From the sequence record OY720014: a DNA stretch of 64,000 nucleotides. One strand, 5' to 3'. The stretch comes from Escherichia phage vB_Eco_QOTSP. Position 1 is the first letter of the stretch. Each line of letters starts with the position of its first letter. The notes beneath the pieces are model-generated. The model made no database searches. It saw only the letters and a list, made by a program, of their open reading frames with translations, and had not been told where the DNA came from. Below are positions 10,763 to 14,091 of this stretch, one piece after another. The position numbers and the translations under genes are program-made.

Positions 10763-10835
10763 TGGGAATTAGCCAAGTTGGTAAGGCACTGGATTTTGAT
10801 TCCAGGATGCAAAGGTTCGAGTCCTTTATTCCCAG
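10763..10835 (+). tRNA. tRNA-Gln (anticodon UUG); no encoded CCA
   Basis: Cloverleaf by eye: acceptor TGGGAAT/ATTCCCA, anticodon stem CTGGA/TCCAG, loop TTTTGAT, T-loop GGTTCGAGTCC. Confidence 0.8.
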
Positions 10836-10836
10836 C

Positions 10837-10923
10837 GCGAGAATGGTCAAATTGGTAAAGGCACAGCACTTAAAATGCTGCGGAATGATTTCCTTGTGGG
10901 TTCGAGTCCCACTTCTCGCACCA
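10837..10923 (+). tRNA. tRNA-Leu (anticodon UAA), long variable arm
   Basis: Acceptor GCGAGAA/TTCTCGC, anticodon loop CTTAAAA, long variable arm, encoded CCA. Confidence 0.8.
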
Positions 10924-10928
10924 AATTT

Positions 10929-11002
<74 letters not shown>

Positions 11003-11048
11003 ATTTATGACTCGTCGTGAGACGCTCAGTTCTTTATTAGGGACTGAT

Positions 11049-11657
11049 ATGCATTTTTATCTTTATAAAATAACAAATAAAATTAATAATAAAATTTATA
11101 TTGGTGTGCATTCTACCGAAAATTTAGATGATGGATATATGGGTTCTGGTAAATTATTAAAAAGAGCCCAAGATAAATATGGTATAGAAAATTTTTCTAA
11201 AGAAATATTAGAGTATTTTGACGATAAAGAATCTATGCTTGAAGCCGAGAAAAATATTGTCACAGAAGAGTTTTTAAATAGACCAGATGTGTATAATTTA
11301 AAACTTGGAGGTGAAGGTGGATGGGATCATATAAATAATTATCCTATGACAGATCAGCAACGCGAATTAATTTCATTGGGTGTTAAAAAGGCGCATTCTA
11401 ACGGAAAATTAAAAGGATGGTCTTCAAATGGATTAATGAAGAATGGCTTTGCTGGTAAAACTCATTCTCAAGAAGCTAAACGTAAAATAGCAAAAGCAAA
11501 CGAAGCAAAAGTTTCTGCGGATGAAAGAAAAAGAAGAATAGAAATTTCTAAATTATATGATTTTTCTAAACGTGGCGAATTGTCTAAATATGCTAAGCAT
11601 ATTGGCGTAAGTCATACTCAAGCAAAAAGAATTCTAAATCAAATTAACAATATATAA
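11049..11657 (+). mobile_element. segB: GIY-YIG homing endonuclease (SegB-like) inside the tRNA cluster
   Basis: N-terminal FYLYKITNKINNKIYIGV GIY-YIG motif and basic C-terminal DNA-binding region; splits the tRNA genes; track ORF begins at 11007, ATG at 11049 preferred. Confidence 0.8.
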
Positions 11658-11663
11658 ATATTT

Positions 11664-11753
11664 GGAGGCGTGGCAGAGTGGTTTAATGCACCGGTCTTGA
11701 AAACCGGCAGTCGCTCCGGCGACTCATAGGTTCAAATCCTATCGCCTCCGCCA
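11664..11753 (+). tRNA. tRNA-Ser (anticodon UGA), long variable arm
   Basis: Acceptor GGAGGCG/CGCCTCC, anticodon stem CCGGT/ACCGG with loop CTTGAAA, encoded CCA. Confidence 0.8.
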
Positions 11754-11759
11754 GTTTTT

Positions 11760-11835
11760 GCTGATTTAGCTCAGTAGGTAGAGCACCTCACTTGTAATGA
11801 GGACGTCGGCGGTTCGATTCCGTCAATCAGCACCA
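11760..11835 (+). tRNA. tRNA-Thr (anticodon UGU)
   Basis: Acceptor GCTGATT/AATCAGC, anticodon stem CCTCA/TGAGG with loop CTTGTAA, encoded CCA. Confidence 0.8.
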
Positions 11836-11836
11836 A

Positions 11837-11911
11837 GGCCCTGTAGCTGGAAGGTTCAAGCAAGCGACTCATAATCGCCAGATGGTGGTTCAATTCCACC
11901 CAGGGCCACCA
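11837..11911 (+). tRNA. tRNA with CAU anticodon (Ile, lysidine-type as in T4, or Met)
   Basis: Acceptor GGCCCTG/CAGGGCC, anticodon loop CTCATAA, T-arm GGTGG/CCACC, encoded CCA. Confidence 0.7.
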
Positions 11912-11920
11912 AATTAATTT

Positions 11921-12007
11921 GGGGAGTTATCCCGTAGAGGTAGCGGTGTGGACTGTAAATTCATTGTCATTGCGACTCGGGTGGTTCGACTCCACCACTC
12001 CCCACCA
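11921..12007 (+). tRNA. class-II tRNA-like gene, candidate tRNA-Tyr (anticodon GUA)
   Basis: Acceptor GGGGAGT/ACTCCCC, anticodon loop CTGTAAA, long variable arm, T-arm GGTGG TTCGACT CCACC, CCA; anticodon stem has two G-U pairs. Confidence 0.55.
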
Positions 12008-12011
12008 ATTT

Positions 12012-12086
12012 GGATGTGTAGCTCAATGGCAGAGCGATCGCCTGTTAAGCGATTGGTTATAGGTTCGAATCCTATCACGTCCGCCA
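12012..12086 (+). tRNA. tRNA-Asn (anticodon GUU)
   Basis: Acceptor GGATGTG/CACGTCC, D-stem GCTC/GAGC, anticodon stem ATCGC/GCGAT with loop CTGTTAA, encoded CCA. Confidence 0.7.
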
Positions 12087-12200
12087 AATTTGTGACAACT
12101 GTCACATTAATATCTACTTGACGCGATTATAGGGGTTGAACTGATCACTCTTCTCTTAATTTCGTGTGAAGACATCTTGATTGTTGGAGTAGGTATTAAT

Positions 12201-12276
12201 GTGGCCGTAGTTCAGTTGGTAGAACTCGAGATTGTGATTCTCGTAGTCATGGGTTCGACTCCCATCGGTCACCCCA
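12201..12276 (+). tRNA. tRNA-His (anticodon GUG)
   Basis: Acceptor GTGGCCG/CGGTCAC, anticodon stem CGAGA/TCTCG with loop TTGTGAT, discriminator C, CCA. Confidence 0.7.
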
Positions 12277-12280
12277 ATTA

Positions 12281-12356
12281 CGGGGCATAGCTCAGAAGGA
12301 AGAGCAAGGACCTTCTAAGTCCTAGGTCGTAGGTTCGATCCCTACTGCCTCGACCA
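12281..12356 (+). tRNA. tRNA-Arg (anticodon UCU)
   Basis: Acceptor CGGGGCA/TGCCTCG, anticodon stem AGGAC/GTCCT with loop CTTCTAA, encoded CCA. Confidence 0.75.
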
Positions 12357-12374: not shown

Positions 12375-12725
12375 ATGAAAGGTAATGTTTATTTAGTAGT
12401 TCATGATTTAACATTTTACTTCAATGAATATGAAAAACATATCTCATTTCGTGAAATTAATTTACTTTATCAACATGCGGATTATATTTATATTCAAAAC
12501 GAATTTGGTCATTGGCAATTTCTCAAAAATCGTTCATTTGGCTTAGATGGTTACGAATACTTTGAACGTAAAGACCTTTTAGATAAAATTCCGTTATCTA
12601 CGCAATATCAAAATCACAAATCTTTATATAAATGCCGTCCAATTCGAAATGTTGAATCCGCGTATGAAGCAATTGATTTATGGCGTGAACGCCGTAAACA
12701 GATTGATGCTTTAAAAGAATATTAA
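12375..12725 (+). CDS. hypothetical protein (116 aa)
   Basis: ORF behind strong RBS TAAGTGAGGAAAATATG immediately after tRNA-Arg. Confidence 0.5.
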   Translation: MKGNVYLVVHDLTFYFNEYEKHISFREINLLYQHADYIYIQNEFGHWQFLKNRSFGLDGYEYFERKDLLDKIPLSTQYQNHKSLYKCRPIRNVESAYEAIDLWRERRKQIDALKEY

Positions 12726-12729
12726 GAAA

Positions 12730-13033
12730 CCGGGTCGCTACCGGTAAGTCGTCGGACTGATGTTCCCTGAGTAAGGAATTGCGTTAATAATCTTTGCGTT
12801 TATTGATGCCCTCTTACATCACAGCAGAAACGGCGCACCGAATTATCGATTCGAGGAAATATCTTTGCCGTAAGCCGAGTAGCGTTTTTGACGGAACGTT
12901 CGGATATGGTCGAGATATGGCCTTTTAAAAATATTGAGTAGCGTCAACTGCTTAATAACCGGGTTCGAATCCCGGCGTTTCGTACAAACACTTGCCTTAG
13001 CAGGTGGAACCCCGACAAGGTTGCCGCAAGGCT
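12730..13033 (+). ncRNA. structured GC-rich non-coding region, candidate T4-type small stable RNAs
   Basis: About 300 bp with no credible ORF, GC-rich relative to flanks, contains tRNA-like T-arm CCGGGTTCGAATCCCGG, ends in a terminator. Confidence 0.35.
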
Positions 13034-13064
13034 TAGCCCCGACCGAAAGGTTGGGGCTTTTTGG
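13034..13064 (+). terminator. rho-independent terminator
   Basis: Hairpin AGCCCCGACCGAAAGGTTGGGGCT followed by TTTTT. Confidence 0.65.
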
Positions 13065-13112
13065 TATAAATATAGTAGTATATTAAATCCACGAATTAAA
13101 ACAGGAAATAAG

Positions 13113-13586
13113 ATGAAATCATATACTCAATTTTTAAATGAAGCGGTGTTAAATGAAGCATCTAGCACCGAAATTCAAGCTGTCGCAAAAGCAGCCATTG
13201 CAGCGGGTAAATATTCCTATAAAGATGCTTCTGATGAATCGCGATTCCAGTTCGCACGCGACATGAAAGCGGAAGGATTTACGGGAAATGCAGTTAGTAT
13301 GGCCTGGAAAAGTTTAGTTGCTACTGGAGCTGCTTTTGCAAAGGCTTCAGGTAAACCTGCTCCTAAGGCTGACCCTAAAGCAGCACAAGAAAAAAATATT
13401 GCTAAAGGAATTATCTCTAGGTATGAAGCAATTCTTAAAGAACTTTTGATAATTAAGACCGAAGGCCAGAAACTTGCGCGAGCTCATAGTTTCAAAGATA
13501 ATCCACATGCTCATGACCTAGAGTATGTTGAAGACATCCAAAAAATTATTAAAGATCGCATTTGGTCTGCTAAACAAATCAAATAA
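13113..13586 (+). CDS. basic Ala/Lys-rich internal-protein-like protein (157 aa)
   Basis: N-terminus MKSYTQFLNEA resembles the capsid-targeting sequence; Lys/Ala-rich composition. Confidence 0.5.
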   Translation: MKSYTQFLNEAVLNEASSTEIQAVAKAAIAAGKYSYKDASDESRFQFARDMKAEGFTGNAVSMAWKSLVATGAAFAKASGKPAPKADPKAAQEKNIAKGIISRYEAILKELLIIKTEGQKLARAHSFKDNPHAHDLEYVEDIQKIIKDRIWSAKQIK

Positions 13587-13593
13587 CATTCTT

Positions 13594-13623
13594 AGCCCCG
13601 ACCAAAAGGTTGGGGCTTTTTGG
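13594..13623 (+). terminator. rho-independent terminator
   Basis: Hairpin AGCCCCGACCAAAAGGTTGGGGCT plus T-run; near-copy of the 13034 terminator. Confidence 0.65.
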
Positions 13624-13754
13624 TATCTAGGCCTTTCCGGGCCTCTCTAGACATCATTTAGTTTCTACCCTTTATAATATATTATCCTATCTTTTAATTG
13701 CCCCTCCCTGCCCTAGAATTCCCCAAAACTTTTTAAAAATTTTTTCACAAAACA

Positions 13755-13827: not shown

Positions 13828-14091
13828 ATGGATAATTACGGCGAACTGTTCAACTTCTTTATGAAATGTGTTTCAGAAGATTTTGGTCGTACAGTGAATG
13901 ATATTAAAGTTATCGGTCCTGATCATCCGATGTTTGAAACTTACGCAGTAATGGGTAATGAAGATGGTCAGTGGTATACTGTAAAGGTTGTGATTAACAT
14001 GTTCACTGCTGAAGGTTATGTTAAACTGTCTTCTAAAGTTTACCATGATAACGATGAAATCGCAGAAGAATATTTCAATAATATGAAATAA
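13828..14091 (+). CDS. hypothetical protein (87 aa)
   Basis: ATG after GGAGA RBS; track ORF starts 12 nt earlier at TTG. Confidence 0.5.
   Translation: MDNYGELFNFFMKCVSEDFGRTVNDIKVIGPDHPMFETYAVMGNEDGQWYTVKVVINMFTAEGYVKLSSKVYHDNDEIAEEYFNNMK

Follow-up and report, generated by a model that had tools for sequence, protein, structure and literature searches.

Orthologues of the T4 species 1 and species 2 RNAs, with a putative tRNA-like half in rnaC, behind the tRNA genes of Escherichia phage vB_Eco_QOTSP

What does a phage carry in a GC-rich interval that lies behind its tRNA genes and holds no credible open reading frame (ORF)? This question is raised by positions 12726-13075 of Escherichia phage vB_Eco_QOTSP (sequence record OY720014), in the numbering of the window, that is, of the entire 64,000-nt stretch analysed here. 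ARAGORN finds ten tRNA genes at 10763-12356, upstream of the interval, the last of them at 12281-12356. A first-pass annotation, made without database searches, had read the interval as candidate stable RNAs and as the possible counterpart of two small stable RNAs of phage T4. Our results show that the RNAs encoded here, rnaD and rnaC, are the already known species 2 and species 1 RNAs of T4, which have been described since the 1970s. We hold the identity, gene boundaries, structure and biogenesis set out below for the two RNAs, taken together, with high confidence.

The identification comes from an alignment with T4, in which positions 71168-70825 of the T4 genome (NC_000866) match positions 12725-13067 of the window at 98% identity over 344 nt. 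Within this stretch, T4 has two misc_RNA features (T4s001/T4s002) named 'rnaD, species 2 RNA' and 'rnaC, species 1 RNA', and the proposal of a T4 stable-RNA counterpart, for which alignment had been suggested as a check, is therefore correct. In addition, the Broida and Abelson record (X03016) marks the species 2 RNA, the species 1 RNA, a 'pot. stem-loop structure' and a 'pot. terminator', and its feature boundaries, transferred via the alignment, give the ends of rnaD and rnaC used here. Mapped in this way, positions 12722-12840 are assigned to the rnaD orthologue (~119 nt, 99.1% identical to T4 rnaD over 116 nt) and positions 12847-12983 to the rnaC orthologue (137 nt encoded, 98.5% identical to T4 rnaC over 137 nt). 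The two predicted genes are separated by the 6-nt spacer AAUUAU (12841-12846), which forms the 5' leader of rnaC and places a U at its position -1. Downstream of rnaC follow a conserved 3' trailer, ACAAACACUUGCCUUAGCAGGUGGAACCCCGACAAGGU, at 12984-13021, with the hairpin CACUUGC/GCAGGUG, and the putative intrinsic terminator of the tRNA/stable-RNA operon, a 10-bp stem with a T-run at 13035-13058, within an element delimited as 13035-13063, that is homologous to the 'pot. terminator' of T4. All these features, as well as those described below within the two RNAs, lie on the plus strand. As in T4, rnaC is the final RNA gene of the tRNA operon and is followed by the operon terminator.

Tequatrovirus isolates, among them Escherichia phages slur02, slur04 and Sa45lw, match the interval and its flanks with 100% identity, and the layout is identical in KAW1E185, G4507 and EC121. 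The first-pass annotation had also supposed that the T4 counterpart is placed differently. In this regard, the order tRNA-Arg, species 2 RNA, species 1 RNA, terminator and e.8 is as in T4, and this part of the claim does not stand; two insertions, described further below, do differ.

The remaining description of the interval agrees with our analysis. The GC content of 12726-13075 is 47.4%, compared with 34.9% over the whole window and with 29.1% and 38.8% in the flanking ORFs on the left and on the right, respectively. As stated earlier, the interval holds no credible ORF: there is no ATG start, and the only ORFs are short ones with TTG starts (44 aa at 12794-12928 and 50 aa at 12934-13086 on the plus strand, 34 aa and 24 aa on the minus strand). 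When folded, positions 12722-13075 (354 nt) reach a minimum free energy (MFE) of -126.1 kcal/mol, with z = -4.9 against dinucleotide shuffles. For the pieces folded separately, z is -4.4 for 12847-12983 (rnaC, MFE -50.1 kcal/mol), -4.0 for 12984-13075 and -1.55 for 12722-12840 (rnaD). The covariance-supported structure on which the earlier proposal depended is present as well, with strong covariation in both rnaC and rnaD across ~10 genera of Tevenvirinae. The Rfam scan that had been suggested assigns the interval to no family, either at gathering thresholds or at E <= 10. Particularly, tRNAs are the sole matches in the window with Rfam 15 at gathering thresholds, and at E <= 10 no credible match falls inside 12722-13075, where the nearest tRNA-related match is tRNA-Sec with 16.6 bits and E = 5.5 (threshold 47).

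How far the two RNAs extend beyond this phage was addressed with the sequence of positions 12700-13100, which matches 806 phage records; for the interval identified with T4 rnaD/rnaC, a match exists in 801 phage records. About 800 phage records carry rnaD/rnaC, most of them unannotated or with the RNAs labelled as hypothetical proteins or tRNAs. In the BLAST listings, the matched stretch mostly bears no feature; the label 'hypothetical protein' is found in some records (for example KAW1E185_00138), and a few have tRNA-Lys, such as 'tRNA-Lys(ttt)' in G4507 and G4500, or 'tRNA-OTHER' (G9062). Further examples of missing or wrong annotation over rnaC/rnaD are found at 2607-2729 of locus L002 and 564-657 of locus L008. 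Among the records listed, few name rnaC/rnaD, namely T4, T4T, RB5, RB59, RB68, ATK47 and GiZh. A covariance model of rnaC (R1), built from eight sequences, scores rnaC here at 177 bits, compared with 179 bits for T4. It finds full-length homologues in Tequatrovirus, Mosigvirus, Gaprivervirus, Karamvirus, Winklervirus and Moonvirus, and further in Kanagawavirus, Marfavirus, Gelderlandvirus, Kagamiyamavirus and unclassified Erwinia and Citrobacter phages. The corresponding model of rnaD (R2) gives 131.8 bits here and, together with BLAST walking, leads to divergent rnaD homologues in Moonvirus, Marfavirus and Kanagawavirus. No Rfam family exists for these RNAs, and the two models would correct the annotation of rnaC/rnaD in ~800 phage genomes.

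The two RNAs differ in their conservation and in their neighbours. Between genera whose rnaD diverges by 12-23%, rnaC is 97-99% conserved. In other genera, rnaC is flanked by tRNA-Trp and tRNA-Gly or by tRNA-Phe and tRNA-Trp, and rnaD directly adjoins tRNA-His, which it follows, or tRNA-Asp, which it precedes. The trailer, in turn, is nearly invariant in Tequatrovirus, Gaprivervirus, Dhakavirus and Mosigvirus, and the conservation of its 38 nt is greater than the approach to a terminator should need. It is also kept in two phages that lack rnaC, the Dhakavirus IME08 (locus L006, 1618-1660) and the Gaprivervirus TH55 (locus L011, 1222-1260).

The MFE fold of rnaC consists of four parts: a stem that closes the ends, a long irregular hairpin, a 10-bp hairpin and a T-arm. 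Across 20 distinct homologues, 91.4% of the cells of this structure hold standard pairs, compared with 36-46% when the partners are slid, and double changes occur in 33 of the 52 pairs; the observed values are reached by 0 of 500 shuffles. Compensatory changes in such a share of the pairs point to selection on the RNA structure. The end-closing stem has the form of an acceptor stem, its 5' strand CGAUUCG (12847-12853) pairing over 7 bp with positions 12976-12982, and its 3' strand CGUUUCG being followed by a discriminator, U12983 (12976-12983 together), without an encoded CCA. Among the 20 sequences, pairs 1, 2, 6 and 7 of this stem are invariant and pair 3 covaries (6 with A-U, 14 with G-C), while positions 4 and 5 form a tandem U·U mismatch in 20/20.

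The long irregular hairpin (12855-12922) stands in the place of a D arm, and 20 of the 22 pairs in helices 3-5 show compensatory changes. In Karamvirus, Kanagawavirus and Gelderlandvirus its sequence is wholly replaced with the helix retained. The 10-bp hairpin (12932-12957), which corresponds to the 'pot. stem-loop structure' of X03016, covaries at 9 of its 10 stem pairs and has an invariant loop. Next to it lies the T-arm that had been pointed out from the letters of the interval, CCGGGTTCGAATCCCGG at 12959-12975. It reads CCGGG-UUCGAAU-CCCGG in the RNA, belongs to the tRNA-like acceptor/T-arm half of rnaC and forms 5/5 pairs in 20/20 sequences, two of them covarying; its loop UUCGAAU fits the T-loop consensus of tRNAs.

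In this arrangement, the 5-bp T-stem and its 7-nt loop sit directly next to the 7-bp acceptor stem, after which comes a single discriminator U. When R1 is run on real tRNAs, these score ~20 bits, and at three loci the acceptor start and the discriminator fall exactly on the annotated tRNA ends. Judged from sequence and from the covariance model, rnaC is thus predicted to carry a genuine tRNA 'top half'. A top half of this kind is what the CCA-adding enzyme, TrmA and TruB recognise. An acceptor stem with a T-stem and loop suffices, moreover, as a model substrate of RNase P (PMC11143913). A tRNA cloverleaf, on the other hand, was not found, there being neither an ARAGORN call nor an Rfam tRNA match in the interval. 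An identity as transfer-messenger RNA (tmRNA) was considered and rejected: rnaC has no G3·U70 (pair 3-70 is A-U or G-C in 20/20 sequences), no tag ORF and no pseudoknots. Likewise, neither ARAGORN nor Rfam finds a tmRNA in the interval, and ARAGORN finds none anywhere in the window.

The tips of the two rnaC hairpins are likely to be connected. UUGACG (12888-12893), the hexaloop at the apex of the long hairpin, and CGUCAA (12942-12947), that of the 10-bp hairpin, are exact reverse complements and are complementary in 20/20 sequences. Both hexaloops are invariant over stems that turn over, with the Marfavirus clade as the sole exception. There, UUGGCG is combined with CGCCAA; this compensatory double change (A to G together with U to C) is found in isolate MY02 and in five more viral or metagenomic contigs. 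The loop-loop duplex amounts to -7.5 kcal/mol, and the chance complementarity of two fixed hexamers is 2.3e-4. On this comparative evidence, UUGACG and CGUCAA most likely form an intramolecular kissing complex.

A loose split-pattern scan of IMG/VR gave 120 loci, of which 80 were scanned with R1; 79 of these are chance matches and one, a Marfa contig, is real. Tighter patterns gave 10 viral loci, mostly known isolate genomes with some uncultivated contigs, and 3 metagenome loci, and none of these 13 loci holds a kissing-loop variant beyond the Marfavirus clade.

As for rnaD, its z is only -1.55 when it is folded alone, and it is the comparison across homologues that rescues the structure. Among 11 homologues, 92.9% of cells are paired, compared with 31-47% in slid controls, and double changes occur in 17 of 32 pairs, including pairs of hairpin P1, of the distal hairpin and the inner pair of helix P2. 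Hairpin P1, ACCGG-GUCGCUA-CCGGU (12729-12745), shows compensatory changes in 4 of its 5 pairs across genera, with replacements of CCGG/CCGG such as CCAUG/CAUGG or GCG/CGC. At the inner P2 pair, Moonvirus and phage ZX14 have C-G in place of G-C. The core of the molecule is made of two blocks. The 5' core (12748-12769) comprises the P2 5' strand GUCGUCG, an internal loop and GUUCCCUG (12762-12769), and the 3' core (12820-12838) comprises CACAGCA, GAAAC and the P2 3' strand CGGCGCAC. In the alignment, the 5' block AAGUCGUC..GUUCCCUG and the 3' block CACAGCA..GGCGCA are conserved, with a variable hairpin between them. GUUCCCUG is invariant in 11/11 homologues, and the upstream motif AAGUCGUC is invariant in 10, ZX14 having AAGCCGUC. 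Such an almost invariant core points to a sequence-specific partner.

Several known motifs were tried on rnaD and rejected. A hammerhead ribozyme, suggested by CUGAUG..GAAAC, does not fit, since the flanking strands pair with each other and leave a two-way junction, the equivalent of A9 is U or G, and Rfam gives no hammerhead match. Kink-turn and loop-E readings misfit the respective consensus, as judged by eye only. A second tRNA-like RNA, to be considered because the T4 3' end encodes ...CACCA, was likewise discarded: no T-arm precedes this end, and the 3' strand is engaged in an internal helix with GUCGUCG.

Regarding biogenesis, the species 1 RNA of T4 has a length of 140 nt and is subject to CCA addition and to RNase III cleavage. 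In T4, a primary transcript of ~1.75 kb gives rise to 8 tRNAs and the species I and II RNAs, and it ends past the species I gene (PMC2330249). We propose that rnaD and rnaC would be passengers of such a polycistronic tRNA transcript, released by the tRNA-processing machinery. Given the tRNA top half of rnaC, RNase P would cut at C12847 and produce its 5' end; the base at position -1 is U in nearly all homologues. Exonucleases would then trim the trailer back to U12983, after which CCA would be added. The same RNase P cut, followed by 3' trimming to helix P2, would yield the 3' end of rnaD, and in T4 its 5' end would be freed by the maturation of tRNA-Arg. In the mature rnaC, the long hairpin and the 10-bp hairpin would replace the D and anticodon arms, and their kissing would produce a compact molecule lacking an anticodon. 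In T4, RNAC has been confirmed by northern blot, RNAC and RNAD being late RNAs of unknown function (2022 omics study, PMC9697503). The northern probe of that study lies in a region that is ~98% identical here, and it should be applicable to the rnaC of this phage.

A number of points weigh against the picture developed so far. The structure counts were taken from model-fitted alignments, which are biased towards that structure; the compensatory changes of rnaC are also seen in a plain MAFFT alignment, which is not model-fitted. In T4-like phages, ACGGAAC (12891-12897) can also form a perfect stem with GUUUCGU (12977-12983), an alternative to the acceptor pairing that explains the 'tRNA-Lys' annotations and that pairs 85% of cells family-wide. 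This alternative was rejected, since it shows no compensatory change, and the U/C column 12980 pairs with 12849 in 20/20 sequences but with 12894 in only 7/20, a pattern that supports the canonical acceptor stem. In Serratia phage LC53 the T-loop is non-canonical (UGCAUCC). In the case of the kissing pairing, a single evolutionary event stands beside the invariance and each loop could bind another partner, and the complex is therefore a good hypothesis and not proven.

Other objections come from phages in which the arrangement is incomplete. Dhakavirus IME08 lacks rnaC, and its rnaD runs directly into the trailer (locus L006, 1498-1705). Gaprivervirus TH55 has a 131-aa ORF (825-1220) that replaces rnaC between rnaD and the trailer (locus L011, 598-1295). 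These lineages, at least, can thus do without rnaC; the two losses are independent of each other. Taken together with the separate tRNA neighbours of the two RNAs in other genera, these losses indicate that rnaC and rnaD are independent modules. In the phage studied here, rnaD follows an ORF and no tRNA, and its 5' end would thus need a different nuclease, cutting it from an mRNA. Finally, the roles of RNAC and RNAD are unknown even in T4 (2010 review, PMC3014915).

Concerning function, we tentatively consider that rnaC may be a non-decoding tRNA mimic that occupies or titrates a factor reading the acceptor stem and T-arm, and that rnaD may be a separate structured RNA whose sequence-constrained core affects growth on particular hosts. 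A further reading, which we regard as rather unlikely, takes both as host-interaction (counter-defence) RNAs, not operon by-products, that tune which strains support growth. If this were true, a kissing-locked rnaC would, through its top half and tandem U·U, decoy or titrate a host factor that recognises tRNA, for instance a tRNA-directed defence nuclease or a processing or modification enzyme. rnaD would work through its invariant core, mimicry of a type I-F CRISPR repeat being one speculative version. Phage tRNAs have recently been linked to the evasion of tRNA-targeting defences. In T4-like phage BW1, one single-nucleotide polymorphism (SNP) in rnaD is common to all lines adapted to E. coli ECOR34, and alongside it the virulence score on ECOR34 rose from 0.17 to 0.98 (2025, PMC12685909). 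The counter-defence reading is consistent with both the shared SNP and this rise in virulence. Considering the link between tRNAs and defence together with the 2025 rnaD result, a role in host range is plausible. The tandem-U·U top half, the kissing hexaloops with their natural variant and the sequence-locked core of rnaD offer structural handles on a question of function that is ~50 years old.

Alternatively, the two RNAs might be processing modules with no function in trans, that is, cis spacers that guide cleavage by RNase P, RNase E or RNase III or that protect 3' ends, accumulating because they are structured. Both RNAs invariably belong to tRNA clusters, either within them or at their end, the trailer stays conserved where rnaC is missing, some lineages lose rnaC yet keep their tRNAs, and 50 years have passed without a function being found, all of which would suit such modules. 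However, UUGACG, CGUCAA and the tandem U·U stay invariant over ~10 genera amid the turnover of stems, which is more than a spacer needs, and most motifs of the rnaD core are likewise invariant. Moreover, a single rnaD SNP accompanies host-specific virulence gains in all ECOR34-evolved lines. In view of these observations, we regard a purely cis-acting role of both RNAs as doubtful.

It is improbable, in our view, that rnaC and rnaD act as base-pairing regulatory small RNAs (sRNAs) on host or phage mRNAs. This notion draws on their abundance as late RNAs, on the term 'small regulatory RNAs' used for them in PMC9697503 and on the invariant single-stranded or loop motifs that both contain. The two invariant loops of rnaC, however, complement each other and are hence not free. 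No sRNA target was identified, and a blastn search with rnaD and rnaC against 5,426 complete E. coli genomes returned no match at extended similarity, short seed matches not being tested. In T4, in turn, no trans-acting sRNA has been characterised (review PMC3014915).

A more specific proposal for rnaD is that of an RNA anti-CRISPR (Racr), a mimic of a solitary enterobacterial type I-F repeat that binds Cas6f and Cascade subunits. The use of Racrs by phages is well established (PMC10651486). In rnaD, GUUCCCUG, a hairpin and CACAGCAGAAAC (12762-12831) resemble the repeat GUUCACUG..CAGCUUAGAAA, agreeing at 16 of 19 positions outside the upper stem and loop, including the three basal pairs CUG/CAG, and the matching parts are near-invariant motifs of the family. 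A split-pattern scan of 1.12 Mb of unrelated viral DNA, on both strands, gave 1-5 hits (0.45-2.2 per Mb), from which 5e-5 to 3e-4 hits are expected per 120 nt, and strings of the type I-F repeat occur in papers on E. coli, Cronobacter and Pseudomonas.

Nevertheless, the resemblance was noticed post hoc and its significance is borderline, the same scan giving 1-3 other hits in this AT-rich window. In addition, the repeat-like register clashes with the register of the fold and of the model. In the Kanagawavirus phage PEi26, the equivalent of the critical G20 is an A (CACAAC), which breaks the repeat-like closing pair and instead suits the model register, where a U·G pair becomes U-A. The rnaD hairpin has ~55 nt compared with 15 nt in the repeat, and the CRISPR-DR families of Rfam give no match. 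The DNA modification of T-even phages, moreover, already blunts several CRISPR types. We therefore judge CRISPR-repeat mimicry to be very improbable.

That rnaC is a decayed tRNA pseudogene, in an interval otherwise non-functional or coding for small proteins, is hardly credible, even though annotation pipelines call tRNA-Lys, tRNA-OTHER or hypothetical proteins there: rnaC is more conserved than rnaD between genera and has compensatory changes in those 33 of 52 pairs, the tRNA-Lys call relies on the alternative stem that lacks covariation support, and the ORFs have TTG starts only and are impossible where rnaC sits a few nt from tRNA genes on both sides.

Around the two RNAs, the locus holds the insertions mentioned above. 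tRNA-Arg and rnaD are separated by an ORF of 116 aa (phrog_3355, 12375-12725), whose stop codon (12723-12725) overlaps the rnaD start as mapped from T4. A second ORF, of 157 aa (phrog_2280, 13113-13586), lies between the terminator and the e.8 homologue (phrog_2678, 13828-14091). The strong terminator had been reported from the letters to recur near 13594, and indeed a 36-nt repeat with one loop mismatch occupies 13032-13067 and, on the plus strand, 13591-13626, the stem and T-run of the second copy being at 13594-13617 and this copy bounding the inserted ORF. A late-promoter-like motif, TATAAATA, is located at 13065-13072, upstream of the ORF at 13113-13586. Downstream of the second terminator copy, sequence matching what follows the single terminator of T4 resumes. 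By its arrangement, the 157-aa ORF between the two copies resembles a cassette that entered through recombination at the terminator. In this regard, the tRNA regions of T2L, RB1 and RB3 contain additional tRNA genes and ORFs of unknown function along with the species I/II RNA genes (PMC2330249).

Further upstream, an ORF at 11003-11660 is located between tRNA-Gly and tRNA-Ser. KAW1E185 annotates a 'group I intron endonuclease' at the homologous place, on account of which the ORF is probably Seg-like; in T4, unlike here, segB sits between tRNA-Ile and tRNA-Arg. The tRNA at 11837-11911, called Met(cat) by ARAGORN, occupies the slot after tRNA-Thr in which T4 annotates tRNA-Ile, and it is therefore probably a lysidine-dependent tRNA-Ile.

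We also observed a structured conserved element of ~95-114 nt at 12087-12200, between tRNA-Asn (12012-12086) and tRNA-His (12201-12276), whose end coincides exactly with the start of tRNA-His. The element has an MFE of -32.7 kcal/mol (z = -4.4), and a 14-bp helix, AUUAAUAUCUACUU / GGAGUAGGUAUUAAU, closes it with compensatory changes. It is also present upstream of tRNA-His in Winklervirus, in an Erwinia phage, in Karamvirus, in Gelderlandvirus and in Citrobacter phage Ursula, whereas ZX14 lacks it; no Rfam family matches the element, which is also unannotated. This element may be a third stable RNA or a leader specific to tRNA-His.

The closest known system is T4 itself, which shares with the window the gene order and strand, the 6-nt spacer, the trailer, the terminator and the neighbours, tRNA-Arg upstream and e.8 downstream. 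T4 lacks the 116-aa ORF between tRNA-Arg and rnaD, as well as the 157-aa ORF and the duplication of the terminator. As a consequence of position and not of any property of the RNA, rnaD of T4 starts 1-2 nt past the 3' end of tRNA-Arg, whereas here the ORF at 12375-12725 intervenes. Within the RNAs, the internal loop of rnaD has one G more in T4, rnaD ends in G here and in A in T4, and two stem positions of rnaC swap wobble and Watson-Crick pairs between the two phages.

With Racrs (PMC10651486), rnaD has in common that it is a small phage-encoded structured RNA with a repeat-like core split by a hairpin; its hairpin is far longer, though, and the closing pair is not kept in all homologues. With tRNAs (RF00005), rnaC shares the acceptor stem, the discriminator, the adjoining T-arm and the surroundings of tRNA genes. 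Unlike them, it lacks an anticodon as well as a D arm and an anticodon arm with a 7-nt loop, in whose stead the two probably kissing hairpins are found, and its acceptor stem contains an invariant tandem U·U. The tRNA-like domain of tmRNA and mascRNA are stable non-decoding RNAs in which paired ends and a T-arm mimic the top half of a tRNA. The predicted architecture of rnaC follows the same concept as mascRNA and the tRNA-like domain of tmRNA, that of a tRNA mimic processed by RNase P.

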